The position numbers were made by a program, and so were the translations under genes. Below are positions 3,512 to 59,175 of a stretch of 64,000 nt of DNA, piece by piece (positions within the stretch are counted from its first letter, which is position 1; each line of letters begins with the position of its first letter). A model generated the notes under the pieces. It made no database searches and had not been told where the DNA came from. It saw nothing but the letters and a program-made list of their open reading frames with translations. This DNA comes from Patescibacteria group bacterium (GTDB lineage Bacteria > Patescibacteriota > Patescibacteriia > Patescibacteriales > WJLG01), in NCBI GenBank assembly GCA_028707065.1, contig JAQTUZ010000002.1, positions 70,513 through 134,512 of the forward strand, written 5' to 3'.

Positions 3512-4501
3512 ATGATAAACACTTTATTAGAGAATTTTCTTATTAAGAAAATTAATCCGGATCCGGAAATCATTAATCAAGCCTCTGAAAGCCAGGAAAG
3601 ACTTAGAGAAATTTTGGCAAATAAGTTGGAAGAAGACAATAGCTTGCCTTCCGTTCTTGAGGGCGAGGATTTTCTCTACGGATCTGCCATCAGGGGAACA
3701 AAGCCAGCACCGTTTGATGATGTTGATTTAATGCTTGTTTTAGATGGATCAACCTTGGTTGCCAAAGAAGGTGGTCAGGAAATGGGTCCAGCATATGGAA
3801 GCGGGAAAACATTTAATCCGCTGACTTTGCCGCAATATAAAGATGAGTTCGGAAATATATCTTCTCAAAAAATTCTAAACCGCATCCGCGAAGTTTTAAG
3901 TGAAACTTATTCTCGTTCCGAAATCAGAAAAGATGGGCAAGCAATTAATGTTTGGTTGGATGCATATGGTTTTGGAATTGATGTTGTCCCTGCTTTTAAA
4001 ATCGCACATACTAGAGCCGGTACCCATTATTTTATTCCCGAAGGAACAAATTCGAATATGTGGCAATCTACGAATCCGCTTTCTGATATTGAAGCATTTA
4101 AAAAAGAAGATGCAAGATTGGGCGGTGTTTTATCTTCAAGTTGTCGACTTATGAGAAAATGGAATGAGTTGAGTAACGCTGACAGGCTTTCAGGATTCCA
4201 TGTGGATGCGCTTGTTTATCGTTCGCTCTTTGGGAAAAATATTACGACACTTGAAAATGCCTTGCGAGAGTGTTTTAATTTGTTTGATCAGCATCTTGTC
4301 TTAACTTGTCCGCAATTTTCTGGGTTTGCCCCACATATTGATTACAAACTTTCGGCTGAGAATCGAGCACAAAGCATCAAGATGGCACAGGAAGCAAAGA
4401 ATTGTTTTTCGGCGCCTGGGTCTGGTCTACTCTTTTCCCTGCCAGCAAGCACTAATATGCGACTTTGGAATAAAATATTCAACGGGGAATTACTTAAGTA
4501 A
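3512..4501 (+). CDS. SMODS / CD-NTase-like nucleotidyltransferase (CBASS-like cyclase candidate)
   Basis: Pol-beta NTase motifs: YGSAIRGT (GS), DDVDLMLVLD (DxD) and a third acidic residue in GIDVVPAF. The downstream IPEG...W..TNP pattern is typical of SMODS. Confidence 0.7.
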   Translation: MINTLLENFLIKKINPDPEIINQASESQERLREILANKLEEDNSLPSVLEGEDFLYGSAIRGTKPAPFDDVDLMLVLDGSTLVAKEGGQEMGPAYGSGKTFNPLTLPQYKDEFGNISSQKILNRIREVLSETYSRSEIRKDGQAINVWLDAYGFGIDVVPAFKIAHTRAGTHYFIPEGTNSNMWQSTNPLSDIEAFKKEDARLGGVLSSSCRLMRKWNELSNADRLSGFHVDALVYRSLFGKNITTLENALRECFNLFDQHLVLTCPQFSGFAPHIDYKLSAENRAQSIKMAQEAKNCFSAPGSGLLFSLPASTNMRLWNKIFNGELLK

Positions 4502-4505
4502 AAGT

Positions 4506-5390
4506 ATGAATAATATTATTGCCAGACAAAATCAACCCGATCAGATTAATAGATTGGCCGCCCAAAGGTATCTATATTCTAAAGCGAAAAATTTTTTTCT
4601 TGCTCGGCTGTTTTTATCCCTCGTGTTTGCAATCATCGCTCCAATTTTAATGTTAGAATTTAAAAATACCCAATATTATATCGCCATATCCGCAGTTTTT
4701 TATTTGTTTGTTGACTTTTTCTTTTTAAGAAGAGTTGAGAATTCTGATAGAAAAAATGCGGCAAAAATTCAAGAAAGTTTTGATTTGGAATTATTTGAAC
4801 TGCCGTGGAACGATATAGTTGCTGGGAATAAAATTGAAGAAGAGAAAGTACTTTCGTCCTCGAAAAAGTATAAGAAAAAAGTGAAAAATAATTTGGCAAA
4901 TTTGTATGATTGGTATTCTAAAGAAATAGGAGATATTGATCTTCTGCCCGCGGTTGCCATTTGCCAGCGGACAAACGTGTATTGGGACGTGTCTTTGCGA
5001 GAGAAGCTTTTTTGGTCAATTATGGCCATAATTTTATTGTTAAGCTTCGTATTATTTTTTTGGGGCAAAAATTCAATAGTGTTTTTATTTTCAGTTCTTC
5101 CTTTTTACGAAGTTATCATTGATTATGCGGCATCGCAGTATTCTTCGGTAGGCAGAATTAAGGAACTTAAAAATAAAATTGAAGAATTACTGGAAAAGCT
5201 ACCTGAATTTAAAAATATCAACAGTGGCATAAAAGGCAGTCTAAGAGCAATTCAGGATCAGCTTTTTAGACACAGGGAGTCGTGTTCGTTTGTTCCAGAT
5301 TGGTTTTATAAAATTTTTAGAGACAGACAGGAGGAGGAGATGAATTATTGTGCGAAACATTATGTTGATAAATTCCTAAGTAAAGTGTAG
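4506..5390 (+). CDS. four-TM effector, SMODS-associated S-4TM/SLATT-like
   Basis: ATG at 4506 is in frame within ORF 4326..5390, 4 nt after the NTase stop. Two pairs of hydrophobic helices (LFLSLVFAIIAPILML, YYIAISAVFYLFVDFFFL, LFWSIMAIILLLSFVLFFW, IVFLFSVLPFYEVII) precede a charged C-terminal tail. Confidence 0.6.
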   Translation: MNNIIARQNQPDQINRLAAQRYLYSKAKNFFLARLFLSLVFAIIAPILMLEFKNTQYYIAISAVFYLFVDFFFLRRVENSDRKNAAKIQESFDLELFELPWNDIVAGNKIEEEKVLSSSKKYKKKVKNNLANLYDWYSKEIGDIDLLPAVAICQRTNVYWDVSLREKLFWSIMAIILLLSFVLFFWGKNSIVFLFSVLPFYEVIIDYAASQYSSVGRIKELKNKIEELLEKLPEFKNINSGIKGSLRAIQDQLFRHRESCSFVPDWFYKIFRDRQEEEMNYCAKHYVDKFLSKV

Positions 5391-10608: not shown

Positions 10609-10695
10609 GGAGGTGTGCTAGAGTGGTCGAATAGGACAGTCTTGAAAACTGTTAGGCCAGCAATGGCCTCAGAGGTTCGAATCCTCTCGCCTCCG
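10609..10695 (+). tRNA. tRNA-Ser (anticodon UGA), type II
   Basis: Hand-folded cloverleaf: acceptor GGAGGTG/CGCCTCC, anticodon arm ACAGT-CTTGAAA-ACTGT, long variable arm, T arm AGAGG-TTCGAAT-CCTCT, discriminator G73. Confidence 0.9.
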
Positions 10696-10743
10696 CATAA
10701 AATTCAAAATGACCTTTTGTCTTTTAAATTTTATATGAAACAA

Positions 10744-26393: not shown

Positions 26394-26464
26394 GCGGGGT
26401 TCGTATAGTGGTAGTACAGGGGTCTCCAAAACCTCTAGCGTGGGTCCGATTCCTACACCCCGTG
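26394..26464 (+). tRNA. tRNA-Trp (anticodon CCA), canonical type I
   Basis: Hand fold: acceptor GCGGGGT/ACCCCGT (G1-U72 wobble), anticodon arm GGGGT-CTCCAAA-ACCTC, short variable loop, T arm GTGGG-TCCGATT-CCTAC, discriminator G73. Confidence 0.85.
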
Positions 26465-26578
26465 CGTATATAAAATCATGTAAAGCGACCCGAAGGCCGA
26501 TTATTTTCGGGTTCCAGACCCAGACAGGTAAAAGTTTTTTGGATAGAAAATTTTAATTTTAAGATTAGATTTTTTTAT

Positions 26579-27808
26579 ATGGCCTATAAGGACGTGTCTG
26601 ACGACGCAATAAATTCAATAGCAAAATTTATTAATCAAAAGAGTAACAAGAATTACTCTATTCCTGTCGTTGGAGACGAGAACAATCCAGAGGTTCCACA
26701 TATTTTTGAAATAATTCCGTTTAATGAAATCGATAAAACTTCAAGTAAATTTTATGCAATAGACGGAAGTTATAATTCTCAAGAATTCTATAACGGTATG
26801 TGTATTGCGGTGTACGCCGCTGGGTATGTTTGCTATAAAGATGGAAAGCAGGTTTGTTTGAATGGGTTAGACGATCCAGTGATATTGGGAAAATCCTACT
26901 TTCCTGAAAGAGTTTTGGTTATAAATGATGAGGATAAGGAACTGATATATGATGAGTTGTTTTCTCTGGATCCGGTCAAGAAGTTAATTGCTTTTTTTGG
27001 GGATCCTGTTAGGGATATTTTTGCGTATGACAAAAAGGCTGTTTGTACCACAACATCAGCATTACTATCTTTTTGCCAGAGCGTTCTTGAATTGGCACTC
27101 ATATATGAAATTGCAAATCTTAAAACCACAGAAGTTGGCGACTTTATTTTACGAGATGGCACTTTAAGACCGATAGATGTTAAGCAAAAGTATTCTGTCA
27201 TGTTGGGAGAATATTTAAAGAAAAAAGGAATTATTATTGTTGCCATAACAAAAAATTCTGGAATTAAGATGGAGCTCTCATATACTTTCAAACAAATTGA
27301 TACATATCTTCAAGATAAATTAAAGCCGACATACTCATTTAAAAACCAAGATTCTAAATGTCAAAAACTTTGTTGTTGGTTTGAAGTTCCCACGACAGTT
27401 CTTTCCAGCGCATATGGTCAAATGTATATAAAAAAGGAGCTTACGGGCGGAAGAGGTTTTGGTTTGTTTTTTGTAGCTAGACTGGATTACGTTGAAAAAT
27501 TACAGAATTACGATTGGCTCGTTGTCGACGTTAATATCTTTGATGCAATTCCTGGAATCAAAACATTTGATATTAAACGAGACATTTTATTTTTAGAGAG
27601 TCTTTTTAAAGAGCTTACTCGTCTTACCCAAGAACATTATATTCTTGGGTATCCTTATCCTTTAGTAGAGGTGCACAATTTTATCACTCTTAAAAAGACA
27701 TTTAAAGATGAAATAATAAAGAGGGTAAAGTTTGCGTTATACGGCAATCAGCAAATGGATAATGTTGATATTGAAAATATATTTTTAGATATACACGATC
27801 GTTTTTAA
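26579..27808 (+). CDS. NurA-like nuclease
   Basis: FYAIDGSYN, ILRDGTLRP and VAITKNSGIK match the conserved DGS / DG(T/S)L / K.S strands of NurA. It sits immediately upstream of a HerA-like ATPase. Confidence 0.65.
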   Translation: MAYKDVSDDAINSIAKFINQKSNKNYSIPVVGDENNPEVPHIFEIIPFNEIDKTSSKFYAIDGSYNSQEFYNGMCIAVYAAGYVCYKDGKQVCLNGLDDPVILGKSYFPERVLVINDEDKELIYDELFSLDPVKKLIAFFGDPVRDIFAYDKKAVCTTTSALLSFCQSVLELALIYEIANLKTTEVGDFILRDGTLRPIDVKQKYSVMLGEYLKKKGIIIVAITKNSGIKMELSYTFKQIDTYLQDKLKPTYSFKNQDSKCQKLCCWFEVPTTVLSSAYGQMYIKKELTGGRGFGLFFVARLDYVEKLQNYDWLVVDVNIFDAIPGIKTFDIKRDILFLESLFKELTRLTQEHYILGYPYPLVEVHNFITLKKTFKDEIIKRVKFALYGNQQMDNVDIENIFLDIHDRF

Positions 27809-27825
27809 TAATTTAATATAAAAAT

Positions 27826-29487
27826 ATGATAAGTAAGGAAAATTTCGGAGTTTTGTATGGGCAAAAAACCACAGAAGATGCTCTGCTTATTTACTCATCT
27901 TATGCTGATTCTAAAGCAAGTCCTCAAACTGGTGATTTTATTGTTTTGGCGCCGAAGGATGAGAGCGGGATAAAGTTTCTCTCAAGAGTTGATGCAGAAA
28001 TTTACGACGAGGATCCGATTTTTAAATCTCAGGATAAGACGCTTATCGCGGTTCACTATGCCCGAATTGCAGAGCGTGAGCTTTCCGAAAGAGATAAGCA
28101 AAAAATTTTTAGCTATACGTATAAAGTTAAAATTTTGGGTACGTTCACTAACAATGGAGGCGGTATAGATTTTACAACCGCCGTAAGAAAGCTCCCCACG
28201 GTTTCGTATCATGCCCGACATCTTTTACCGGAAGAAATTAAATATATTTTAAATAAGGATAATCAACAGGAAGGTAGCCAACCATCAGCTTTAGGATATC
28301 TTTGTATCGGTGATTCCGAACAAAAGGAAAAGGGTGAAATATTTTTCGATATCAATAAACTTTGTAAAAAAAGAACAATGGTCTTTGCTCAATCTGGTTT
28401 CGGTAAGACAAACTTGGTTAAAACCTTGATTTATCATGCTATAGGTGATACTGGCTACGGGAAGCTTGTCTTCGATTTAAACGGAGAATATGCTTTAAAA
28501 AGTCAAAAGACAAATGGTCTCGGCGATATTAATGAGCAGAAAATAAAAGACAATCTAGTTGTGTATACTGATAAGTCAATTCCAGTAGAGTACAATGGTC
28601 GTTTTATTGCTGGTGGAAAAGTCGCCTTAAACATGTATAAGAATTTATCCGTAGGTGATGTGCTAAATTTTACTACTGGTTTTTCTGATGTAATGAAATC
28701 TTTTCTTATTTATTTGAACGATGGTGCTGGAAATTTTATGGAAAAGATTGAAGATTATGCCAGTACTCCACAAAATTTATATAAAGATTTCCCTGATTTT
28801 TGGGGTCAAGAGAAGTCGGATAAAAAAACAGGAGAATTTAAAGATGATGCTAAAGCACGTCCTACAATAATGGGCATTAGAAAAAGAATTGGTTTTCTTT
28901 TGGATGAGAAGGGTGGCTTGCATTCTAATTCGTCAACTTTAGTGGAGGATGTTTGTAAATATTTACGAGAAGGAAAAACTGTTGTATTGGATCTTTCAAT
29001 GAAAGATGACACCGAATCAAGTATTATTTCTACAATTATTGTGCGTAAAATATTCGAGATTAATAAAGCTAGTTTTACAACGGAAGAGGATATCGGCGAG
29101 CCAATTCCTTGCGTTATATTTGTTGAAGAGGCGCAAAATGTTTTATCGGAAGAATTCGTGAAATCAAATGCTAATCCTTTTGTGCGTATTGCAAAAGAAG
29201 GAAGAAAATTTGGAATCGGATTAGTCGGCATTACTCAGAGGCCATCGGCAATTTCTGAAGAAATAAGAACTCAGGCTGATAATTTTTTTGCATTTCACAT
29301 GGGGAATAGTGATGATATACGTGCGCTAGTCAAATCTAATTCTAATTATGATGGTGTCATTGCTAAATTTATTCAAAGCGAAACAATCCCCGGTAATTTG
29401 TACATGGTTTCTTCTACACAGGCGTTTGTTCTGCCCATCCGAGTATATGAATTTGAGAAAATGATAAAAACAAAACTATACAAATAG
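27826..29487 (+). CDS. HerA/DUF87-type (FtsK-HerA superfamily) ATPase
   Basis: Walker A AQSGFGKTN, Walker B CVIFVEEAQN, EGRKFGIGLVGITQRPSAIS. Confidence 0.8.
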   Translation: MISKENFGVLYGQKTTEDALLIYSSYADSKASPQTGDFIVLAPKDESGIKFLSRVDAEIYDEDPIFKSQDKTLIAVHYARIAERELSERDKQKIFSYTYKVKILGTFTNNGGGIDFTTAVRKLPTVSYHARHLLPEEIKYILNKDNQQEGSQPSALGYLCIGDSEQKEKGEIFFDINKLCKKRTMVFAQSGFGKTNLVKTLIYHAIGDTGYGKLVFDLNGEYALKSQKTNGLGDINEQKIKDNLVVYTDKSIPVEYNGRFIAGGKVALNMYKNLSVGDVLNFTTGFSDVMKSFLIYLNDGAGNFMEKIEDYASTPQNLYKDFPDFWGQEKSDKKTGEFKDDAKARPTIMGIRKRIGFLLDEKGGLHSNSSTLVEDVCKYLREGKTVVLDLSMKDDTESSIISTIIVRKIFEINKASFTTEEDIGEPIPCVIFVEEAQNVLSEEFVKSNANPFVRIAKEGRKFGIGLVGITQRPSAISEEIRTQADNFFAFHMGNSDDIRALVKSNSNYDGVIAKFIQSETIPGNLYMVSSTQAFVLPIRVYEFEKMIKTKLYK

Positions 29488-29492
29488 ATAAA

Positions 29493-30704
29493 ATGTTACA
29501 ACTTGATGTAAAAAAGAAAATAAATTTAGATACTCTTTTTGAAGACTTAGCCCAAAAAGACAATCTTGTTCTTGAGGAAAAAGTTAAACTCTTGATTTTG
29601 AGGGATCTTTTACGTTTAAATTGGAAAATAGATTTTGATAAAAACAAGATTGTTATTGCCCCTCCTGAGAATTATGATAAGGAGACTGTTCGTCTTGCCA
29701 TGTCTCACAAACGTAAAGAGTCAATTGGTGATAATGCCGAATGGATAAGAAACAATATTGAATTTGCTAGAAATAATCTTGCGGATGGGAAAGATGTTTT
29801 AAGGTCAAAGATAAAACCAATAATTGAGGTATGTGAATCTCCTAGACAACACGATTTATTTAGACTGTATCGGTATTATTGGTCATCTGCTCATAGTGAA
29901 TATGTTGGCAGAAGGATAAAATTAATTATAAGAGACGGTGGTTTGCCCAATAAGCCAGTTATAGGAATAGCTGCTTTAGGTAGTCCAATTATTCATATTC
30001 CTGATCGTGATAATTGGATAGGTTGGGATAAAAATTTAAGAACAAAAAATCTTATTTATGCAATGGATGCATATGTTATAGGTGCGCTGCCTCCTTATAA
30101 TTATTTATTAGGCGGCAAACTCGTTTCTTATGTTTTAGCGTCCAACGAGGTTAGAAAGATATATAAAGATAAGTATAAAAATAAAATTACTTTAATTGAC
30201 AAAAAGAAAGCGAGTGATTTGGTATGTATTTTTACTACCAGCTTGTATGGTAAGAGTGCTCAGTATAATCGGGTAAAATATAAAAGTAAATTACTCTATA
30301 TGCCGATAGGGGAGACGAGGGGTTTTGGAACTCTACATTTATCTAGCGAAACTTTAGATGCAATGTTGGAATTATTGTTTTCAAAAGGAATTTTTGTAAC
30401 AAATAAATTTGGTGATGGTCCAAGTTGGAGCATGAGAGTTATTAGGACGGTGGGGGACATGCTTAATTTCGATTCTGATTTTCTTCTTAGGCATTCTTTT
30501 AAGAGAGGAATTTATGTTGTTCGGCTCGCGAGTAATTTTCGTAATTTTTTAAATGGTAAAGACAAAAAACCAAAATATTATAACTATTCGCTTAAAAATT
30601 TAGTTTCTTTTTGGAAAAAACGTTGGTTTAAAAATAGAAAGCAGAATATTGATGTTATTCAAAAGGTTGAAGCTTTTAATAAATCCGATTTTAATATTCT
30701 TTAA
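29493..30704 (+). CDS. DUF4338 (Druantia DruA)-like protein
   Basis: LYRYYWSSAHSEYVGRRIKLIIR...IGIAALGSPIIHIPDRDNWIGW...NLIYAMDAYVIGALPPYN..LGGKLVSYVLA matches, from memory, the YHYLG...RD.WIGW...N..R.L.LP core. It needs HMM confirmation. Confidence 0.55.
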   Translation: MLQLDVKKKINLDTLFEDLAQKDNLVLEEKVKLLILRDLLRLNWKIDFDKNKIVIAPPENYDKETVRLAMSHKRKESIGDNAEWIRNNIEFARNNLADGKDVLRSKIKPIIEVCESPRQHDLFRLYRYYWSSAHSEYVGRRIKLIIRDGGLPNKPVIGIAALGSPIIHIPDRDNWIGWDKNLRTKNLIYAMDAYVIGALPPYNYLLGGKLVSYVLASNEVRKIYKDKYKNKITLIDKKKASDLVCIFTTSLYGKSAQYNRVKYKSKLLYMPIGETRGFGTLHLSSETLDAMLELLFSKGIFVTNKFGDGPSWSMRVIRTVGDMLNFDSDFLLRHSFKRGIYVVRLASNFRNFLNGKDKKPKYYNYSLKNLVSFWKKRWFKNRKQNIDVIQKVEAFNKSDFNIL

Positions 30705-30748
30705 AACTGTAGGTTAAATGACAAGATAATCAAGGACAAGCTAAATAT

Positions 30749-31657
30749 ATGGATATATCACAGGCAAAGGGTTATCTCTTTGAGTATGTAGTCCAAAATT
30801 TATTAAAAAAATCTGGTTACGTGAAAGTGAGGATGGCAAATATAAGAGGCAGGGGTGGCGATCATCAAATAGACGCCTATGGCTTATTATCAATTCCAAC
30901 GCCTTTTATTTATCCAATAAGATTGATATGTGAAGCTAAAAATTACGGAGATAAAATTGGATTAGGAAAAATCAGGGATTTTGTTGGAGTAATGAAGGAT
31001 ATTTCGGAAAAATATACTACTCGAAAAAATGGCAAATATGAAAGATTTTCTGACTCCGGTTGCTATTTTTCAACAAAGGGTTTCACGATGGACGCTCAAA
31101 AATATGCATGGGCTCAAAATATTTTTTTGGTCTCTCATAATGGTATTGATAGATCTAATGAGATAGTAAAAGTTATTGATGAATTTTTATCTAGCAATCA
31201 GTTTGATGGTTTGAACAAGGGAGGGTTGATAGAAAGGTTTAAAGTATTTTTTGAAAGAAGATTTGACGATTTAGCAATTTCTTTCACGGTCGGTATTGTA
31301 AATGGTAAATATCCAACAGTAATTGTTGGCAATAAGGGGTTGGTCGATAAAATAAAGCAATTTTTGCCGTCTGATTCCGATTCTTTTGGGGCGACAAAAA
31401 CATCGCGAGAGTGGAATGAAACTGATACATATTTTAATGTTTTTATAAATGAATTAGGGGAGGAAATAAAGGTTTCAGTCCCTAATTTCATAGCTAAACA
31501 TATTGTAAATAAGATAGATAGGTCAAGGCCTGGTAATAAGATATTTTATATAGACGTGCCAGTGCTATCTAAAATAAGGCGTTTTGTTACTATTGATGTT
31601 TCATTGGGTGAATTTGAAACTGCGGATTATTTGGATAAATTGAGAAGGGATTCATAG
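30749..31657 (+). CDS. Mrr-like PD-(D/E)xK restriction endonuclease domain protein with unknown C-terminal half
   Basis: GYLFEYVVQNLLKKSGY, GGDHQIDAYG, LICEAKNYGDKIGLGKIRDFVG, GCYFSTKGFTMDAQKYA. Confidence 0.7.
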   Translation: MDISQAKGYLFEYVVQNLLKKSGYVKVRMANIRGRGGDHQIDAYGLLSIPTPFIYPIRLICEAKNYGDKIGLGKIRDFVGVMKDISEKYTTRKNGKYERFSDSGCYFSTKGFTMDAQKYAWAQNIFLVSHNGIDRSNEIVKVIDEFLSSNQFDGLNKGGLIERFKVFFERRFDDLAISFTVGIVNGKYPTVIVGNKGLVDKIKQFLPSDSDSFGATKTSREWNETDTYFNVFINELGEEIKVSVPNFIAKHIVNKIDRSRPGNKIFYIDVPVLSKIRRFVTIDVSLGEFETADYLDKLRRDS

Positions 31658-31776
31658 TGGCCCAGGGCCATATAGTGTCCCATTTGTCCCATTTAGTCTG
31701 CCCCATATGCCGTATAAAATATCATTGAATAATGCCGAAACTACTTGTATAATGTAATATAGACCCGTACGTGGTG

Positions 31777-31820
31777 CTGAAAATAAAAATGCTGGCTTGC
31801 GCCAGTATTTTTATTTTCAG
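31777..31820 (+). terminator. 20-bp AT-rich hairpin after the four-gene cassette
   Basis: ctgaaaataaaaatgctggc / ttgc / gccagtatttttattttcag (one mismatch). Confidence 0.65.
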
Positions 31821-31887
31821 TATCGAGGAGAATGGAATCGGACTGGCCGTGAGCGAACGCGGAATTCCCTCTATCCCCGTGAATTAG
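31821..31887. other. short GC-rich element with a tRNA-Trp-3'-end-like terminus
   Basis: gaggagaatggaatcgg...cggaattccctctatccccgtg. The end resembles tRNA-Trp ccgattcctacaccccgtg. Confidence 0.4.
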
Positions 31888-31890
31888 ATA

Positions 31891-31916
31891 ATATCGCCTC
31901 ATTAGCGATATTTTTT
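31891..31916 (+). terminator. hairpin plus T-run
   Basis: atatcgc / ctcatta / gcgatat followed by tttttt. Confidence 0.5.
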
Positions 31917-31958
31917 GATAGAAAAATTAAGCCTTTGTTATCAATAGCCGGCTTTATA

Positions 31959-31995
31959 TAAAAAAACCGCCCGAATGGTTTTGGCCATTGGGCGG
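31959..31995 (-). terminator. rho-independent terminator of the RT gene
   Basis: The minus strand reads ccgcccaatggcc aaaa ccattcgggcgg ttttttt. Confidence 0.65.
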
Positions 31996-32035
31996 AGTAA
32001 AATTGCGTTTACTTTCGATTTGTACATTCCAAATT

Positions 32036-33085
32036 TCAAGTTCCGATCATTGCCAGAAGTTTTTCATAAGGCCGTCGAATTTGCTGCGGTAGGCCCATTT
32101 TTTTGTAAACCGGTTTCATTGAAGCCACCAGACCTAAAGCCCGGGGCCTTAACTCCGGTTTGGATATTGCCAAATGCAATAAGGCTCTGGCCAGTCTCCG
32201 CTTTTTCTTCGGACAGGTAATGCCGCCCTGGGTAATGAAACTGGTCAATCTCAGGCCGGTAAGCATAACTTGGCCGTGCTTCTTGTGCTGATAGGAAGTT
32301 TTTTGGGGATTGACCCGAAAACCCGATTGCTCCACGACCGTCACCAATTCCTTCCTTATTCCTTCAGGGATCGGCAGGGCCGAAGAAACCGCGATATTGT
32401 CGACATAGCAGGAAATCTTAAAATCTTCAGATTTGCCGAGTCGCGAAAGAAAAGTGGTCAGCCAGCTTCCATAAAGGGCGAGGGCGAAAAGCAGCGGAGC
32501 GGTTGGAGTCCCTTGAGGAACGATTCCGTCAGTCGTGGTCAGCTGTAAAATTAACTTGACCAAGCCGCGAAAGTCAGCCTCAAATTCAGACCAGTCGCTC
32601 CCCGCCAAAATCATTTTTCCCACCGAAGTGTTGTTCAAAAAGATATCTGACGTGTCCATCGCGTACGATGTAAATGCCGTCTCCAGCCAAAACGCCCGGT
32701 CGATAATCCGGCGCAGGAGATGTTCCCGCAAAGCCTTTAGATCTACGGACGGAAAAGCATTCTGCAGATCAAGCTGGTAAAACCAATAAGATGCGCTATG
32801 CTTTCGGGCGTGATCAATGTAGGAGCCGCTTCCTTTTCTTAAGCCGAAAATAAAATTATTATAATGCCGCGCCAGAGGGAAACAAAGACGGCTTAAGCAC
32901 CGCTGTCTCAATATTCTTTGCAAGAGATGAAGCGGCGAGGCGGGAAGATAAACTTTTCTCGGAGTATTGTTTTTTCTCGGCAGCTCTTTGATCGTGTAAT
33001 TTCCCACGCAAGCCAGAGCCTCTTCGATTAACGATCGGTCGGTTTGAATGATTTCGGATAAAAAAACGATCGGATCAATATTCAT
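32036..33085 (-). CDS. retron-type reverse transcriptase
   Basis: RT motifs PRKVYLPASPLHLLQRIL, FGLRKGSGSYIDHARKH (NAxxH-like), YQLDLQNAFPSV, VPQGTPTAPLLF, YVDNIAVSS (YxDD variant), GFRVNPQKT, VMLTGLRLT (VTG-like). AGGAGG RBS. Confidence 0.8.
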   Translation of the reverse strand: MNIDPIVFLSEIIQTDRSLIEEALACVGNYTIKELPRKNNTPRKVYLPASPLHLLQRILRQRCLSRLCFPLARHYNNFIFGLRKGSGSYIDHARKHSASYWFYQLDLQNAFPSVDLKALREHLLRRIIDRAFWLETAFTSYAMDTSDIFLNNTSVGKMILAGSDWSEFEADFRGLVKLILQLTTTDGIVPQGTPTAPLLFALALYGSWLTTFLSRLGKSEDFKISCYVDNIAVSSALPIPEGIRKELVTVVEQSGFRVNPQKTSYQHKKHGQVMLTGLRLTSFITQGGITCPKKKRRLARALLHLAISKPELRPRALGLVASMKPVYKKMGLPQQIRRPYEKLLAMIGT

Positions 33086-51167: not shown

Positions 51168-52355
51168 ATGGCTGAAATAAAACCATTGGCCGAAACATTC
51201 GCCAAGATCAAAGTCGTGGGCGTGGGCGGCGGCGGCGGAGCCGCGATCCAAAGAATGATCGAAAAAGAGATCAGAGGCGTGGATTTTATTGCCATCAATA
51301 CCGATGTGCAGGCTTTGCATTACAATAAAGCCGGCGATAAATTGCATATTGGCAAATCGGTTACCAGAGGTCTGGGAGCGGGAATGAATCCGGAATTGGG
51401 CCGGCAGGCGGCGGAAGAATCGCAGAATGAGGTCAGGGATGTTTTAAAAGGCTCGGATATGGTGTTTATTACCTGCGGTTTGGGCGGCGGAACCGGTACG
51501 GGAGCGGCGCCGGTAGTGGCGGAGATCGCCCGGGATCTGGGCGCGCTGACCGTGGCGGTCGTGACCAGGCCCTTTTCTTTTGAAGGCGGACAGCGCAAGG
51601 CGATCGCCGAGCGCGGCTTTGCCGAACTGGCTGATAAGGTTGATACGATCATCACCATCAACAATGATAAATTATTGCAGATCATCGATAAGAAAACTTC
51701 TTTGATGGAAGCTTTTTCGGTAGCGGACGATGTGTTGCGCCAGGGCGTCCAGGGCATTGCCGAGATCATCACTATTCCCGGCTTGATCAACGTTGACTTT
51801 GCCGATGTCCGGGCGGTGATGCAAAATGCCGGCTCGGCTTTGATGGGCATCGGCCAGGCGTCGGGCGAAAATCGGGCGATTGAGGCGGCCAAGGCGGCGA
51901 TCAATTCCACTTTGCTGGATATGTCGATCGACGGCGCGCGCGGGATCGTTTTTACCATTACCGGCGGAACCAATCTGGGCATGAACGAAGTTTCCGAGGC
52001 CGCGAAGGTGATTACCGCTTCGGCCGATTCTGAAGCCAAGATAATTTTTGGCGCGGTAATTGACGAGCGATTAAAAGATGAAATAAAAGTTACGGTCGTG
52101 GCCACCGGTTTTGACGGCCAGGCGCGGGATATTTCCGGCAAACAAATGCGCACTGCTTATACGCCTAATTCCTTTATCGCGGAGAAGGAAGACAAAAGCC
52201 GCGGCTGGTTCGGCGGCAAGTCTGATAATACGTCCGATACAATGAAGAAAAGCAAGATCTCGCCGGTAAAAATGGCCCAGGAAGAATTGCCGGACGAAGA
52301 ATCGGAAGAAGGCGAACTCGGCATCCCGGCGTTTATTAGGAAGAAAATGAAATAG
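51168..52355 (+). CDS. ftsZ: cell division protein FtsZ
   Basis: [26 protein letters not shown] and NVDFADV. Confidence 0.95.
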
Positions 52356-52467
52356 AAGTAAGAAGGCAGAAGTAAGAAGTAAAAAACCCTTGACTTATTT
52401 TGCCGATTTGATATGCTTAAAATAGATTAGAACTTTGAAAGGCTGGGGCTGGACACCCCTAATAAAA

Positions 52468-52559
52468 GGCATCTGAGACACAAACTTGTGTCGATCCCGG
52501 CGTGGGCACCAAAAAAGTCCAACGCCGAGAGGCGTTTTCTGAGAGAAATCTTAGATGCC
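52468..52559 (+). promoter_or_regulatory. candidate structured leader / attenuator
   Basis: Closing stem GGCATCT...AGATGCC encloses the hairpins GACACAA/TTGTGTC and AACGCC-gaga-GGCGTT(ttct). CGGCGT could pair with ACGCCG as an alternative. TTGACT...TATGCT promoter-like sequence at about 52388-52415. Confidence 0.3.
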
Positions 52560-52644
52560 GCCTACGTCGGGATTGGTACAAGTTTTGTTTTTGTACCAAA
52601 CGCAAAAAGAGAGCCGCTCTGACTAGAAAGGAGAGTGGTGCAGA

Positions 52645-52770
52645 ATGAAATACTTTACGATTAAAGTTGGGCGTGATGCAAGAACCGGAAAGCTTATTAC
52701 TGTTCAAGAAGCCAGAAGAAGAAGTTCTACCGCTGTAGTTGAAACTATAAAAATCCCGCTAAAAAAATAA
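52645..52770 (+). CDS. small basic protein (41 aa), hypothetical
   Basis: Manual ORF MKYFTIKVGRDARTGKLITVQEARRRSSTAVVETIKIPLKK with an AAAGGAGAG RBS. A 12-bp hairpin (52766-52795) overlaps the stop. Confidence 0.35.
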   Translation: MKYFTIKVGRDARTGKLITVQEARRRSSTAVVETIKIPLKK

Positions 52771-52887
52771 TATCGGACTGTAATCCGATATTATTTACGA
52801 AATAGTGTATCTAAGAAAAAAATAGACGCGGCTTTCTTTTTTGTGTAGAAAAATCCGGCTATTAGCTGGGCATAAAATCTTATCGTT

Positions 52888-52972
52888 GGAGGGTTGACTG
52901 AGTGGTCTAAGGTGACCATCTCCAAAATGGTTATGCTGGGAGGCATCGAGGGTTCGAATCCCTCACTCTCCG
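52888..52972 (+). tRNA. type II (serine-like) tRNA with anticodon CCA
   Basis: Hand fold: acceptor GGAGGGT/ACTCTCC (G1-C72, G2-C71, A3-U70), D arm ACT-GAGTGGTCTAA-GGT, anticodon arm ACCAT-CTCCAAA-ATGGT, 16-nt variable arm TATGCTGGGAGGCATC, T arm GAGGG-TTCGAAT-CCCTC, discriminator G73. Confidence 0.75.
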
Positions 52973-53027
52973 CAAGAAAATTTTTATGCCCAACTCATGG
53001 TCGGATTTTTTATTTTGAAATAACTCG

Positions 53028-53057
53028 AATCCGGATTTAAGGCCGGATTATTTTTTT
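53028..53057 (+). terminator. hairpin plus T-run downstream of the tRNA
   Basis: aatccgg / atttaagg / ccggatt followed by attttttt. Confidence 0.55.
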
Positions 53058-53193
53058 GAGTTGTCGCGTTACCTTAGCACTGATATCAAGACATGTCAAT
53101 AGATAGGGGACAAAAAAACCAGCTCGAATAAGTCGAATGGTTTATCGCAAAAAATAACTGGTAATTTTTTGCATATGCAAGGGTTAAATATCA

Positions 53194-53339
53194 GAATTCT
53201 GCTGTTATCCACAGTATACCATTTTTAAGAATTCATGCCAATAGAAAATAGAATTCTAATAATTTCAGTCTAAAATTAGCTAAAAATCGACAAAGAATTC
53301 TTAATTATTCATAAGGAATTCTTATGAATTCACGAATTC
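53194..53339. repeat. cluster of seven GAATTC palindromes
   Basis: GAATTC at 53194, 53229, 53251, 53295, 53316, 53326 and 53334, mostly in the context aRGAATTCtNa. Confidence 0.8.
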
Positions 53340-53353
53340 TGAATTACCATAAA

Positions 53354-53758
53354 CTACCTGTTAATTGAAGCATTATCTTCTTTTGAAATGCATTTTTTAG
53401 AATTGATATCAAATTCATAACTCGGAACACAAACACAGTTGCCATCACGTTCATCTATGTATGAATATTCACCGCAATCTCTAAAAGGTTTTTTTTCGTA
53501 CCAAAATTCTGTTTGGCATTCTCCGTCTTTCATTTTTACTCTTGAGCATTCGCCAAATATTAACTTTCCATTGTCGGTTTTCTTGTAATTACAAATAAAA
53601 TTACCAAAAATCGCATCAAATGAAAATTCTTTTATTTCTACGCTTTCCCTACAATCATCAACTTTAATAGTCCCTTCTTTTTCACAACCCGAAACGAGTA
53701 AACATAATATTAAACTACAGAATAATAACCCCGCCTTTTTATTCATATTTTTTGCCAA
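53354..53758 (-). CDS. hypothetical Cys-rich lipoprotein
   Basis: Signal peptide with lipobox LVSGC. Multiple Cys residues. Confidence 0.55.
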   Translation of the reverse strand: MAKNMNKKAGLLFCSLILCLLVSGCEKEGTIKVDDCRESVEIKEFSFDAIFGNFICNYKKTDNGKLIFGECSRVKMKDGECQTEFWYEKKPFRDCGEYSYIDERDGNCVCVPSYEFDINSKKCISKEDNASINR

Positions 53759-53804
53759 AATTTATAGCCTAGTGTTACGTGTTATGAGTTATGTGTTATG
53801 CGAT

Positions 53805-54785
53805 TTATAGCAATGGCGTATTGAGGATTTCTTTGATTGATGAGAGCGCGGGACGTTTCTTTCCGATCAGCTTGTCTTTGCCCAGAAAAATTTTGTAGGC
53901 TTTTTCCACCGGGTAATCATAAAGCGTGACCGCCGCGATGGCGTCGGCCATGCGGATCGCTTCCTCAAGCGGGCGCTGAAAAATATTGCGGCCGACAGCG
54001 ACGCCGCGGGTGCCGGAGATATTGATTTGATTATGGATTTGCTGCAAGAATTTCTTTTCCGGCATCTTGGAACCGCCGATCGGAATGACCTGGGAACGCC
54101 CGGCCGCCGTCACCACTTCGCGGAATTTTTTGGCGGTTTCGATCGTCGGTTTGTCATAAGGATAGCTGATCTTTACGAAATCGGCGCCCAGACAGACGGC
54201 CACGCCCGCGCCGCCGGCTAAAAGATGAATATCAGTCTCGTCTTTGACGGCTTTGCCGCGGGGATACATCCAAACGATCGCCAGCATGCCTTCCTGGTGC
54301 GCTTTATAAATGATACGCGCCGCCTGGCCGAAAGATTCGGATTCGAATTCGCTGCCGATATAGACGGTGTAGCCGACGCCGACGATGTTCAGGCCGGAAT
54401 CTTTTTTAAAATCAATAATATCTTCCATGGCCAGCCAGCGGTTGGAAAACGGGTCACGCTCGGTTTTTTTGATGATATTTGTTTTGGAATTAGCTTTAAT
54501 GATCAGCGGCACTTTTGGGCAGAGGTCGGCATATTTGGCGATCAAGCCCAGTTGCGAACCCAAGACGCCGATATGCGCTTTTTTGGCGATCTCGAAAAAA
54601 TGCCGGGGATCGGCGACCTCAGGGCTTATTCCCGGACCGACAAAATCGTCATTCAAATGCTCGACCTTTTGGTCGCAGGCGAACATAAATAATTTTCCCG
54701 TGCCCCGGGTGGCAATTTCCCAATTTTTTAAGTATTCAGCTCGTTTAGCCTTAGGCACGGTATAAGGGACATGGATTTTTTGCAT
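53805..54785 (-). CDS. class I fructose-bisphosphate aldolase (DhnA/FbaB, archaeal type)
   Basis: Length and motifs of the DeoC/LacD-type aldolase fold: MFACDQKVEH, Schiff-base Lys region DFVKISYP. Confidence 0.75.
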   Translation of the reverse strand: MQKIHVPYTVPKAKRAEYLKNWEIATRGTGKLFMFACDQKVEHLNDDFVGPGISPEVADPRHFFEIAKKAHIGVLGSQLGLIAKYADLCPKVPLIIKANSKTNIIKKTERDPFSNRWLAMEDIIDFKKDSGLNIVGVGYTVYIGSEFESESFGQAARIIYKAHQEGMLAIVWMYPRGKAVKDETDIHLLAGGAGVAVCLGADFVKISYPYDKPTIETAKKFREVVTAAGRSQVIPIGGSKMPEKKFLQQIHNQINISGTRGVAVGRNIFQRPLEEAIRMADAIAAVTLYDYPVEKAYKIFLGKDKLIGKKRPALSSIKEILNTPLL

Positions 54786-58553: not shown

Positions 58554-58641
58554 TCAACATAACACACAGCACGTAACACATAACAGTAAAATTAATTTAT
58601 TTAACTGTTGCATGTTATGTGTTATGTGATATGTGTTACGT
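58554..58641. repeat. word-repeat inverted repeat (GTTATGTG word family)
   Basis: caacataacacacagcacgtaacacataacag ... ctgttgcatgttatgtgttatgtgatatgtgttacgtg. The right arm ends 6 nt before the rplJ start. Confidence 0.7.
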
Positions 58642-58647
58642 GAAAAT

Positions 58648-59175
58648 ATGCCTAAAACAAGAGCGCAAAAGCAGGTGATTCTGGATGGGTTGACCGAAAA
58701 GGCAAAGAAGGCCAAGTCCGTTGTTTTCGCCAAGTTCAACAAATTGCTGGTCAAGGAAAACGAGGATCTGCGCCATCGCCTCAAGGCCGAAGGCGGCGAA
58801 TATTATGTCGCCAAAAAGACTTTATTCAATCTGGCTTTCAAAAACAATCAGCAAGAGATTGATTTTAAAACCATGGACGGCCAAGTCGCGGCGATCTTCG
58901 GCTATCAAGACGAAGTTGCTCCGGCCAAAGTCGTGGATACTTTCCGCAAGGAAATGGAAGAGCCGAAGATATTTTTCTTGGGCGGAATTTTGGAGAATAA
59001 ATTCATTTCCAAAGAGATGGTGGAAAGCCTGGCCAAGCTTCCTTCCAGGAAGGAATTATACGCCAAGCTGGTCGGCTCGATGAACGCTCCGGTTTCCGGT
59101 TTCGTCAATGTCTTGGCTGGCAATTTACGCGGCTTAGTCACTTGTTTGAAAGCGATTGGCGAGAAGAAAGCTTAA
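58648..59175 (+). CDS. rplJ: 50S ribosomal protein L10
   Basis: ATG at 58648 (MPKTRAQKQ...). L10-typical sequence, followed by rplL. Confidence 0.9.
   Translation: MPKTRAQKQVILDGLTEKAKKAKSVVFAKFNKLLVKENEDLRHRLKAEGGEYYVAKKTLFNLAFKNNQQEIDFKTMDGQVAAIFGYQDEVAPAKVVDTFRKEMEEPKIFFLGGILENKFISKEMVESLAKLPSRKELYAKLVGSMNAPVSGFVNVLAGNLRGLVTCLKAIGEKKA

Follow-up and report, generated by a model that had tools for sequence, protein, structure and literature searches.

Natural tRNAs in which the body of one isotype carries the anticodon of another are rare, and they are raw material for codon reassignment and regulated mistranslation. Allo-tRNAs combine a long variable arm and serine-like identity elements with non-serine anticodons, and are built with 8/4 or 9/3 branches (PMC5389517). 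The tRNAProX of Streptomyces and Kitasatospora are dual-identity tRNAs that form a conserved family with a dedicated, co-encoded synthetase, ProRSx, and they carry the unusual nucleotides A33, A15-A48 and A34 (PMC11415595). A tRNA-Ser with a proline anticodon, engineered or natural, is known from yeast, flies and humans (PMC6827378, PMC9258585), and serine misincorporation is expected for anticodon variants of tRNA-Ser because seryl-tRNA synthetase (SerRS) ignores the anticodon (PMC9976931). Here, we analyze a tRNA gene at positions 52888-52972 on the forward strand of a 64,000-nt stretch of DNA from a Patescibacteria group bacterium (contig JAQTUZ010000002.1). We call the whole stretch the window and the gene product the 52888 tRNA. 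It is a class II tRNA with a serine-type body and the tryptophan anticodon CCA (52922-52924), and, judged from its sequence, it has a dual identity in which the complete serine set stands beside the major tryptophan set.

Bacterial SerRS recognizes the long variable arm by its size and orientation, aided by G73 and the acceptor stem; the anticodon is ignored, in agreement with what the first-pass annotation of the window had said of this enzyme, and the pair C2-G71 acts against it (PMC9976931). For bacterial tryptophanyl-tRNA synthetase (TrpRS), C34, C35, A36 and G73 are the major determinants and A1-U72 is a minor one, and for the B. subtilis enzyme the pairs 2-71 to 4-69 contribute too (PMC9976931). 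The 52888 tRNA has the acceptor pairs expected of a SerRS substrate (G1-C72, G2-C71 and (A/G)3-(U/C)70) and no C2-G71 antideterminant; in place of a serine-codon anticodon (NGA or GCU) it has CCA. It also carries C34, C35, A36 and G73, and we read its identity as dual because CCA and G73 are major determinants for TrpRS as well. The Trp-type acceptor end (A1-U72 or G1.U72) is absent, its place being taken by G1-C72, and so is the class I body with a short variable loop, the variable arm being long and the profile of ordinary tRNA-Trp giving a score of 11.4 bits. SerRS and TrpRS would be expected to compete for such a molecule, and the serylated share would put serine at UGG. The first-pass annotation had proposed that serine would be inserted at UGG if the tRNA were expressed and serylated; the part of this proposal that concerns SerRS stands, as the serine set is complete, but it had left TrpRS out of account, whose major determinants are all present.

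The fold leaves little room for another reading. ARAGORN finds three tRNAs in the window, at 10609-10696, 26394-26465 and 52888-52973, and calls the last an 86-nt tRNA-Trp(cca) on the forward strand with the anticodon at raw position 35. The Rfam tRNA model RF00005 matches 52888-52972 over model positions 1-71 with 50.3 bits (E 8.5e-08 in the 64-kb window), comparable to the 55 and 53.3 bits of the window's two ordinary tRNAs. The Infernal alignment and the sequence agree on the acceptor GGAGGGU/ACUCUCC (G1-C72, G2-C71, A3-U70, G4-C69, G5.U68, G6-C67, U7-A66), a 3-bp D stem ACU/GGU closing the loop GAGUGGUCUAA, an anticodon arm made of the fully paired 5-bp stem ACCAU/AUGGU and the 7-nt loop CUCCAAA (52920-52926), a 16-nt variable region UAUGCUGGGAGGCAUC folding into a 5-bp stem with a GGGA loop, the T arm GAGGG-UUCGAAU-CCCUC, and the discriminator G73 (52972). 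The canonical 7/5 type II cloverleaf that the first-pass annotation had folded by hand is thus reproduced arm by arm, and ARAGORN, which it had proposed as a check, and the Rfam covariance model both return the CCA anticodon in its perfectly paired stem. An alternative fold or anticodon can be ruled out, since the two programs agree on the 7-nt loop and the 5-bp stem. The single-sequence minimum free energy fold gets the pairing of the D and anticodon arms wrong, which is usual for tRNAs, and was not relied on; an antisense Rfam match to Plastid-psbI-rps4 (RF04351) lies well below the gathering score and was not used as evidence. The CCA end is not encoded, likewise in the window's other two tRNAs. 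All conserved tertiary positions are intact along with the cloverleaf, and the D stem has A10-U25 where relatives have G10-C25, a double change that retains pairing. With its pairing kept and its bit score on a par with those of the other tRNAs, the body is not degenerate.

On sequence comparison, this body classes as that of a serine tRNA. We masked the anticodon and built profile hidden Markov models from all class II tRNAs that ARAGORN called in the gathered sequences. The 52888 tRNA scores 52.6 bits with the Ser profile (61 sequences), 40.5 bits with the profile of a class of long-arm CCA tRNAs described below (94 sequences), 14.0 bits with the Tyr profile (14 sequences), 12.8 bits with the Leu profile (67 sequences), and 11.4 bits with the ordinary type I Trp profile (16 sequences). 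Five-fold cross-validation between the first two profiles assigned 52/61 Ser and 91/94 long-arm CCA sequences correctly; as the CCA class was gathered by a pattern that the 52888 tRNA also fits, its 40.5 bits are biased upwards. By BLASTN, GenBank phages contain no close match. Their top full-length hit is the tRNA-Ser(CGA) of MT836946 (76.7% identity, with the same GGAGGGU 5' strand), and the next matches are a tRNA-Ser(UGA) and an annotated tRNA-Ser. Among all gathered sequences, the top four hits are Ser(CGA), Ser(UGA), Ser(UGA) and Ser(CGA), the last from an Adlerbacteria genome, and over its last 27-32 nt at the 3' end the 52888 tRNA agrees with the ends of tRNA-Ser genes at 93-97% identity. 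The genome's own tRNA-Ser(UGA) (10609-10696, forward strand, found by ARAGORN and Rfam; acceptor GGAGGTG/CGCCTCC, G73) shares G1-C72, G2-C71, A3-U70, G4-C69 and G73 with the 52888 tRNA, and the two D loops differ by one base. The masked profiles, the BLASTN matches and the acceptor pairs all support the serine-type architecture that the first-pass annotation had likened to this gene.

The most parsimonious and most likely origin, as far as such comparisons go, would be a tRNA-Ser(CGA) with a G35-to-C change. We favor it because it takes one base change and because the closest full-length relatives are tRNA-Ser(CGA). C35 (52923) is the sole position that separates CUCCAAA from the Ser(CGA) loop CUCGAAA. 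What the first-pass annotation had offered as a fallback is therefore the most economical account of where the gene came from. With tRNA-Ser(CGA), the 52888 tRNA has in common the 7/5 cloverleaf, the 3-bp D stem with a GAGUGGUC-type loop, the 16-nt variable arm, G73, the GGAG... acceptor (G1-C72, G2-C71, A3-U70) and the loop C32 U33 C34 N35 A36 A37 A38. It differs in having C35 for G35, so that it reads UGG (Trp) and not UCG (Ser), and in lying within a strain-specific insertion and an enclosing 29-bp leader-trailer helix.

Set against the described systems, the 52888 tRNA shares the long arm, the serine-like elements and the non-serine anticodon with allo-tRNAs. The parallel with them that had been suggested at first does not carry through, as the tRNA is 7/5 and not 8/4 or 9/3 (PMC5389517). 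The suggested parallel with mistranslating tRNA-Pro variants fares no better. Like tRNAProX, this is a natural bacterial tRNA with the body of one isotype and the anticodon of another, but it has canonical nucleotides, no relatives that we could find, and no dedicated synthetase beside it; the large open reading frames (ORFs) of the 64-kb window contain no aminoacyl-tRNA synthetase domain. The anticodon variants of tRNA-Ser, which include the CUG-decoding tRNA of Candida besides those of yeast, flies and humans, have the same serine body and non-serine anticodon. The 52888 tRNA differs from them in being a natural bacterial example, from the candidate phyla radiation (CPR), and in that its new anticodon, together with G73, would recruit a second synthetase, TrpRS, and make the molecule ambiguous. 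Our literature search for serine-type mismatch tRNAs returned only the known mismatch-tRNA papers, and in the limited library searched, neither phage tRNA-Trp genes of class II nor a canonical tRNA-Ser of bacteria bearing a Trp anticodon were described.

The window also encodes the normal type I tRNA-Trp(CCA) that had been reported in it (26394-26465, forward strand, 72 nt; ARAGORN, Rfam), with G1.U72, C2-G71, G3-C70 and G73. The loop CUCCAAA and the pair U31-A39 of the 52888 tRNA are the same as in the tRNA-Trp sequences examined, and efficient decoding of UGG is to be expected because the loop is identical to that of an ordinary tRNA-Trp. The code itself is standard, as had been claimed. TAA, TAG and TGA are all used as stops in 30 ORFs of the window (11,722 codons); 135 of these codons are UGG, and 21% of the Ser codons are UCG. 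In orthologues from three close relatives, W stands opposite the window's UGG codons in 53/59, 31/37 and 32/35 cases and S in none, and UCG is aligned overwhelmingly with S. A reassignment of UGG to serine is ruled out by these alignments, and we conclude that UGG means Trp because of them and because all three stops are in use.

A long arm and G73 had been taken in the first-pass annotation as marks of serine identity. This is unsafe by itself, as long-arm tRNA(CCA) genes with G73 turn out to be abundant in phage arrays. We scanned for the combination of a Ser-type D loop, YUCCAA at the anticodon, a long gap and a T loop, and found matches in at least 120 metagenome contigs and 33 IMG/VR contigs. 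ARAGORN called tRNA-Trp(cca) in 152 of 154 stretches, namely the window's own tRNA, which served as the control, and 151 of the 153 matches listed; together they comprise 95 unique sequences, or 94 without the window's own tRNA. A second scan with the D loop unconstrained gave at least 92 long CCA tRNAs with many types of D arm. Among the matches listed, the genes almost always lie in phage-style multi-tRNA arrays, and in 22 of the 24 loci that carry 12 tRNAs or more, no tRNA with a Trp anticodon is present besides the long-arm one. The class spans L084-L236 and L246-L345 (metagenome and IMG/VR contigs), with L200:943, L199:1501 and L110:3834 as example loci; contig L200 covers all 20 amino acids with one tRNA apiece, the Trp one being long-armed. 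As regards the acceptor, unique class sequences among the matches listed have U72 in 69/92 and 51/67 cases, G73 in 81/92 and 64/67, and G1-C72 in only 6/92 and 5/67, and C2-G71 is frequent. The long-arm and the ordinary tRNA-Trp of one array share N1-U72/C2-G71/G3-C70/G73, the acceptors in L199 being ACGCAUG/CAUGCGU and ACGUAUG/CAUGCGU. From these sequences, TrpRS evidently tolerates a long arm, and the phage class looks like an undescribed type II tRNA-Trp.

On sequence grounds, we do not count the 52888 tRNA as a member of this class. Both have the class II shape, the CUCCAAA loop, G73 and, in the phage class often, a Ser-like D loop; it is the acceptor stem that sets them apart, not the variable arm. 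The phage genes have a Trp-type acceptor, with A1-U72 or G1.U72 and often C2-G71, whereas the 52888 tRNA has C72, G2-C71 and A3-U70. The phage genes also sit in multi-tRNA clusters, whereas the 52888 gene is solitary; its specific sequence had no match in viral contigs in our scans, and no PHROG matches lie near it. Ser-type acceptors combined with CCA are rare exceptions in the census (L105/L186, L166 and the viral contig L296). The tRNAs at L105:123-216 and L186:2923-3016 are identical, with GGAGAGA/UCUCUCC, G73, CUCCAAA and a bulged or mismatched anticodon stem, and adjoin a tRNA-Gln(CUG) in a high-GC (66-68%) organism; that of L296 (4186-4272) has the acceptor GGAGCUG/CAGCUCC.

The gene lies in an AT-rich intergenic insertion of 1,449 nt (52356-53804) between ftsZ (51168-52355, forward strand; Pfam Tubulin and FtsZ_C) and a convergent gene for a DeoC/LacD-family aldolase (53805-54785, reverse strand; Pfam DeoC), and the tRNA starts 532 nt past the end of ftsZ. 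The GC content of the insertion is 35.6%, that of the window 43.4%. Pfam matches give the gene order Wzy/TPR protein, prepilin peptidase, ftsA, ftsZ, DeoC-family gene, phosphoglycerate mutase ... rplJ, rplL. The FtsZ protein is closest to those of Patescibacteria (67% identity to a Falkowbacteria-type protein among species representatives), with relatives at 95-75% identity in the protein database. We compared eight related genomes, whose FtsZ proteins are 95, 94, 93, 92, 91, 80, 80 and 77% identical. The neighborhood gene order is conserved in 8/8, and in 7/8 the DeoC-family gene directly follows ftsZ at intervals of 126, 71, 540, 58, 138, 79 and 67 nt. The 540 nt in one relative (L083) are other sequence, and the eighth relative (L240) has an unrelated 305-aa ORF between the two genes. 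ARAGORN finds no tRNA in the interval in the six relatives for which DNA was available; in the remaining two, known from gene tables, the intervals are too short for any tRNA. The window's 1,449-nt interval could not be aligned to those of the relatives. The comparison of orthologous loci that the first-pass annotation had proposed therefore yields no orthologue in the eight relatives, and because they keep ftsZ and the DeoC-family gene without the tRNA, we conclude that the tRNA is a lineage-specific gain at an intergenic insertion hot spot. A conserved, selected function is disfavored because the insertion is absent from all eight.

The wider search took in FtsZ-anchored loci from 80 genomes, of which 57 were scanned, and in almost all of the 57 the surroundings of ftsZ are free of tRNAs. 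Three Paceibacteria-type CPR genomes have a cluster of tRNA-Val(GAC), tRNA-Ser(CGA) and tRNA-Glu(UUC) 1-4 kb past ftsZ (L034:10362-11120, L035:9681-9964, L039:2971-5076). We considered an ancestral synteny of tRNA-Ser near ftsZ and dropped it, as the eight closer relatives have no tRNA there. By BLASTN, nothing in the insertion apart from the tRNA resembles the loci gathered from other genomes, the sole match being a contig of the same genome in the Logan assemblies.

The rest of the insertion gives few clues to its nature. A 41-aa ORF (52645-52770, forward strand), which we regard as a candidate gene only, has no Pfam match and a marginal PHROG match; upstream of it lie a promoter-like site (52390-52417) and a long hairpin (~52478-52600, ~26 consecutive pairs; the fold of 52418-52660 has z -5.0), and a perfect 13-bp hairpin (52765-52796) follows it. 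Apart from the tRNA, Rfam has no match in the insertion, including the hairpin region 52418-52660. An orphan 134-aa ORF on the reverse strand (53354-53758) is Cys-rich and has a lipoprotein-like N-terminus (LLVSGC); it belongs to no Pfam or PHROG family, has no homologues, and its only database match is itself (P0121, PHE24_01510). None of six short ORFs near the tRNA is present in the protein collection searched. Pfam and PHROGs reveal no integrase, transposase or phage gene in the insertion, and no flanking direct or target-site repeats were found around it. That the insertion is a transposon, a miniature inverted-repeat transposable element or a prophage remnant could not be demonstrated, given the lack of repeats, mobile genes and homologous loci.

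The tRNA is bracketed by an inverted repeat with 29-nt arms on the forward strand, one on the leader side (52849-52877) and one on the trailer side (52982-53010), which are 86% complementary. The fold of 52840-53060 has a free energy of -80.4 kcal/mol and z -5.9, and the repeat would be predicted to form, in the transcript, a long leader-trailer helix enclosing the tRNA. There is no second copy of the 29-nt arm in the 64-kb window and no comparable helix around the window's other two tRNAs. The helix could be a processing stem of the RNase III type, what remains of the two ends of an inserted element, or a structure that slows maturation. Downstream of the tRNA, the promoter and terminator scan finds a terminator-like hairpin with a T run (53028-53056, forward strand); directly upstream, it finds no convincing promoter.

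Taking these observations together, we put at about even our confidence that the 52888 gene is a young, accessory, serine-derived tRNA with an anticodon of the G35C type and a dual Ser/Trp identity. A tRNA-Ser, most simply a tRNA-Ser(CGA), would have gained a G-to-C change at the middle anticodon base, and would have been brought in by, or duplicated into, the strain-specific AT-rich insertion between ftsZ and the DeoC-family gene. If transcribed, the precursor would presumably be freed from the 29-bp helix and then undergo RNase P cleavage, trimming at the 3' end and addition of CCA; once mature, the RNA would be expected to pair well with UGG through CUCCAAA, and SerRS and TrpRS would compete for it, the serylated fraction leading to Trp-to-Ser substitution. 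Several points weigh against this reading. There is no orthologue in the eight relatives and no second copy among the matches listed in the metagenome scan, so that neither conservation nor covariation gives a sign that CCA is kept by selection. Efficient serylation of a UGG decoder would be strongly deleterious, which favors poor expression or mainly Trp charging. Finally, the base at 52923 comes from one assembly. The Logan contig L243 (SRR22315508; 1,197 nt) is 100% identical to window positions 52945-54141 and bears out the stretch from the final third of the tRNA through its trailer arm and the terminator to the orphan ORF, but it ends inside the tRNA, in the 3' strand of the variable arm and 21 nt after the anticodon, and so does not reach C35. 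It is this last point that would matter if CCA were an artefact or a minority allele and the real gene an ordinary tRNA-Ser(CGA), with 52923 wrong or drawn from a strain mixture. We think this improbable. The sequence does come from a metagenome-assembled genome, a single base separates it from the canonical Ser(CGA) loop, and UCG accounts for 21% of Ser codons, yet the 64 kb contain no tRNA-Ser(CGA). However, the eight relatives, which have no tRNA here, must decode UCG from elsewhere, so that the missing gene says little. The Logan break at 52944/52945 would fit a branch in the assembly graph, and may be due to a second tRNA present in the sample, for instance a paralogue or strain variant of a tRNA-Ser, whose final 30 nt are the same; the position of the break is not where a single-nucleotide polymorphism at 52923 would end a unitig with k = 31. 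Assembled contigs seldom contain consensus errors, the site does not lie in a homopolymer, and the 9-nt stretch in common with the type I tRNA-Trp loop is too short for a chimeric assembly; an error at exactly 52923 is unlikely a priori.

If the sequence is taken as it stands, the gene might instead be a working class II tRNA-Trp, horizontally acquired and charged by TrpRS, as the long-arm phage genes presumably are, through CCA and G73, the major bacterial Trp determinants, with a benefit in extra Trp decoding or in resistance to a nuclease that targets tRNA-Trp. The phage arrays lend this some force. They contain long-arm tRNA(CCA) with G73 in abundance, mostly as the sole Trp-anticodon tRNA of a large array, so a long arm appears compatible with Trp decoding; the AT-rich insertion looks foreign, and harmless Trp charging would account for the gene's being tolerated. 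Still, we hold it to be unlikely. The phage class has U72 and often C2-G71, the SerRS antideterminant, matching the type I tRNA-Trp of the same arrays, whereas the 52888 acceptor is unlike the genome's own tRNA-Trp (G1.U72, C2-G71) and has the same first four pairs as its own tRNA-Ser(UGA); the Ser profile scores 12 bits higher than that of the long-arm CCA class; and there is no tRNA array, no nearby phage gene, and no viral contig that matches the specific sequence. The gene could also be a silent or decaying redundant copy of a tRNA-Ser, or have a non-ribosomal role, for example as a structured RNA within the leader-trailer helix. A singleton in a variable insertion hot spot (with 540 nt of other sequence in L083 and an unrelated ORF in L240), no convincing promoter immediately upstream, and a 29-bp helix that could hinder access of RNase P are all in line with this, and the expected toxicity of Trp-to-Ser substitution speaks against high activity. 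It is nevertheless quite unlikely in our view, as the cloverleaf and tertiary positions are intact, the score equals those of essential tRNAs, D-stem pairing was kept by a double change, and a terminator-like hairpin follows the unit, as expected of a transcribed gene. Within the reading that we prefer, a serine-derived tRNA with dual identity, the variant is probably neutral to mildly harmful and not a conserved recoding device. That it is expressed and truly ambiguous, charged in part with Ser and in part with Trp and causing low-level Trp-to-Ser substitution at UGG in a CPR bacterium, we rate as improbable.

Other features of the window are recorded here for completeness. A low-GC (~34%) defense island (26579-33085) lies directly after the tRNA-Trp at 26394-26465, next to which it may have integrated; its genes are NurA-like, HerA, DruA-like (Druantia), an Mrr-type endonuclease and, on the reverse strand, a retron-type reverse transcriptase. 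A pair of genes at 3512-5390 resembles a cyclic-oligonucleotide-based antiphage signaling system (CBASS), with an oligonucleotide cyclase (SMODS, 3512-4501) and a four-transmembrane effector (4326-5390), and a ParB-fused type II DNA methyltransferase is encoded at 657-1952 on the reverse strand. The ribosomal protein L10 leader RF00557 (58421-58552, 54.4 bits), upstream of rplJ (58633-59175), is ordinary and served as a positive control for the Rfam search.

As a singleton in a variable insertion, the 52888 tRNA probably has little biological weight unless it is expressed and serylated, and the class II tRNAs of phage arrays that carry a Trp anticodon may merit closer attention than it does. 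It is nonetheless a clean natural substrate for studying the competition between SerRS and TrpRS and the stepwise change of tRNA identity. A CPR bacterium of this kind is probably dependent on external tryptophan, and, if the tRNA is indeed ambiguous, the insertion of Ser at UGG might ease the stalling of ribosomes during a shortage of Trp-tRNA. Since G73 is common to the Ser and Trp tRNAs of bacteria, one G35C change in a tRNA-Ser(CGA) creates the core of Trp identity. If the tRNA is expressed and ambiguous in this way, the gene would be a living first step in the remolding of a serine tRNA into a tryptophan tRNA, in which later changes at 1-72 and 2-71 complete the switch, and such a route could explain the phage long-arm tRNA(CCA) genes with Ser-like D arms.

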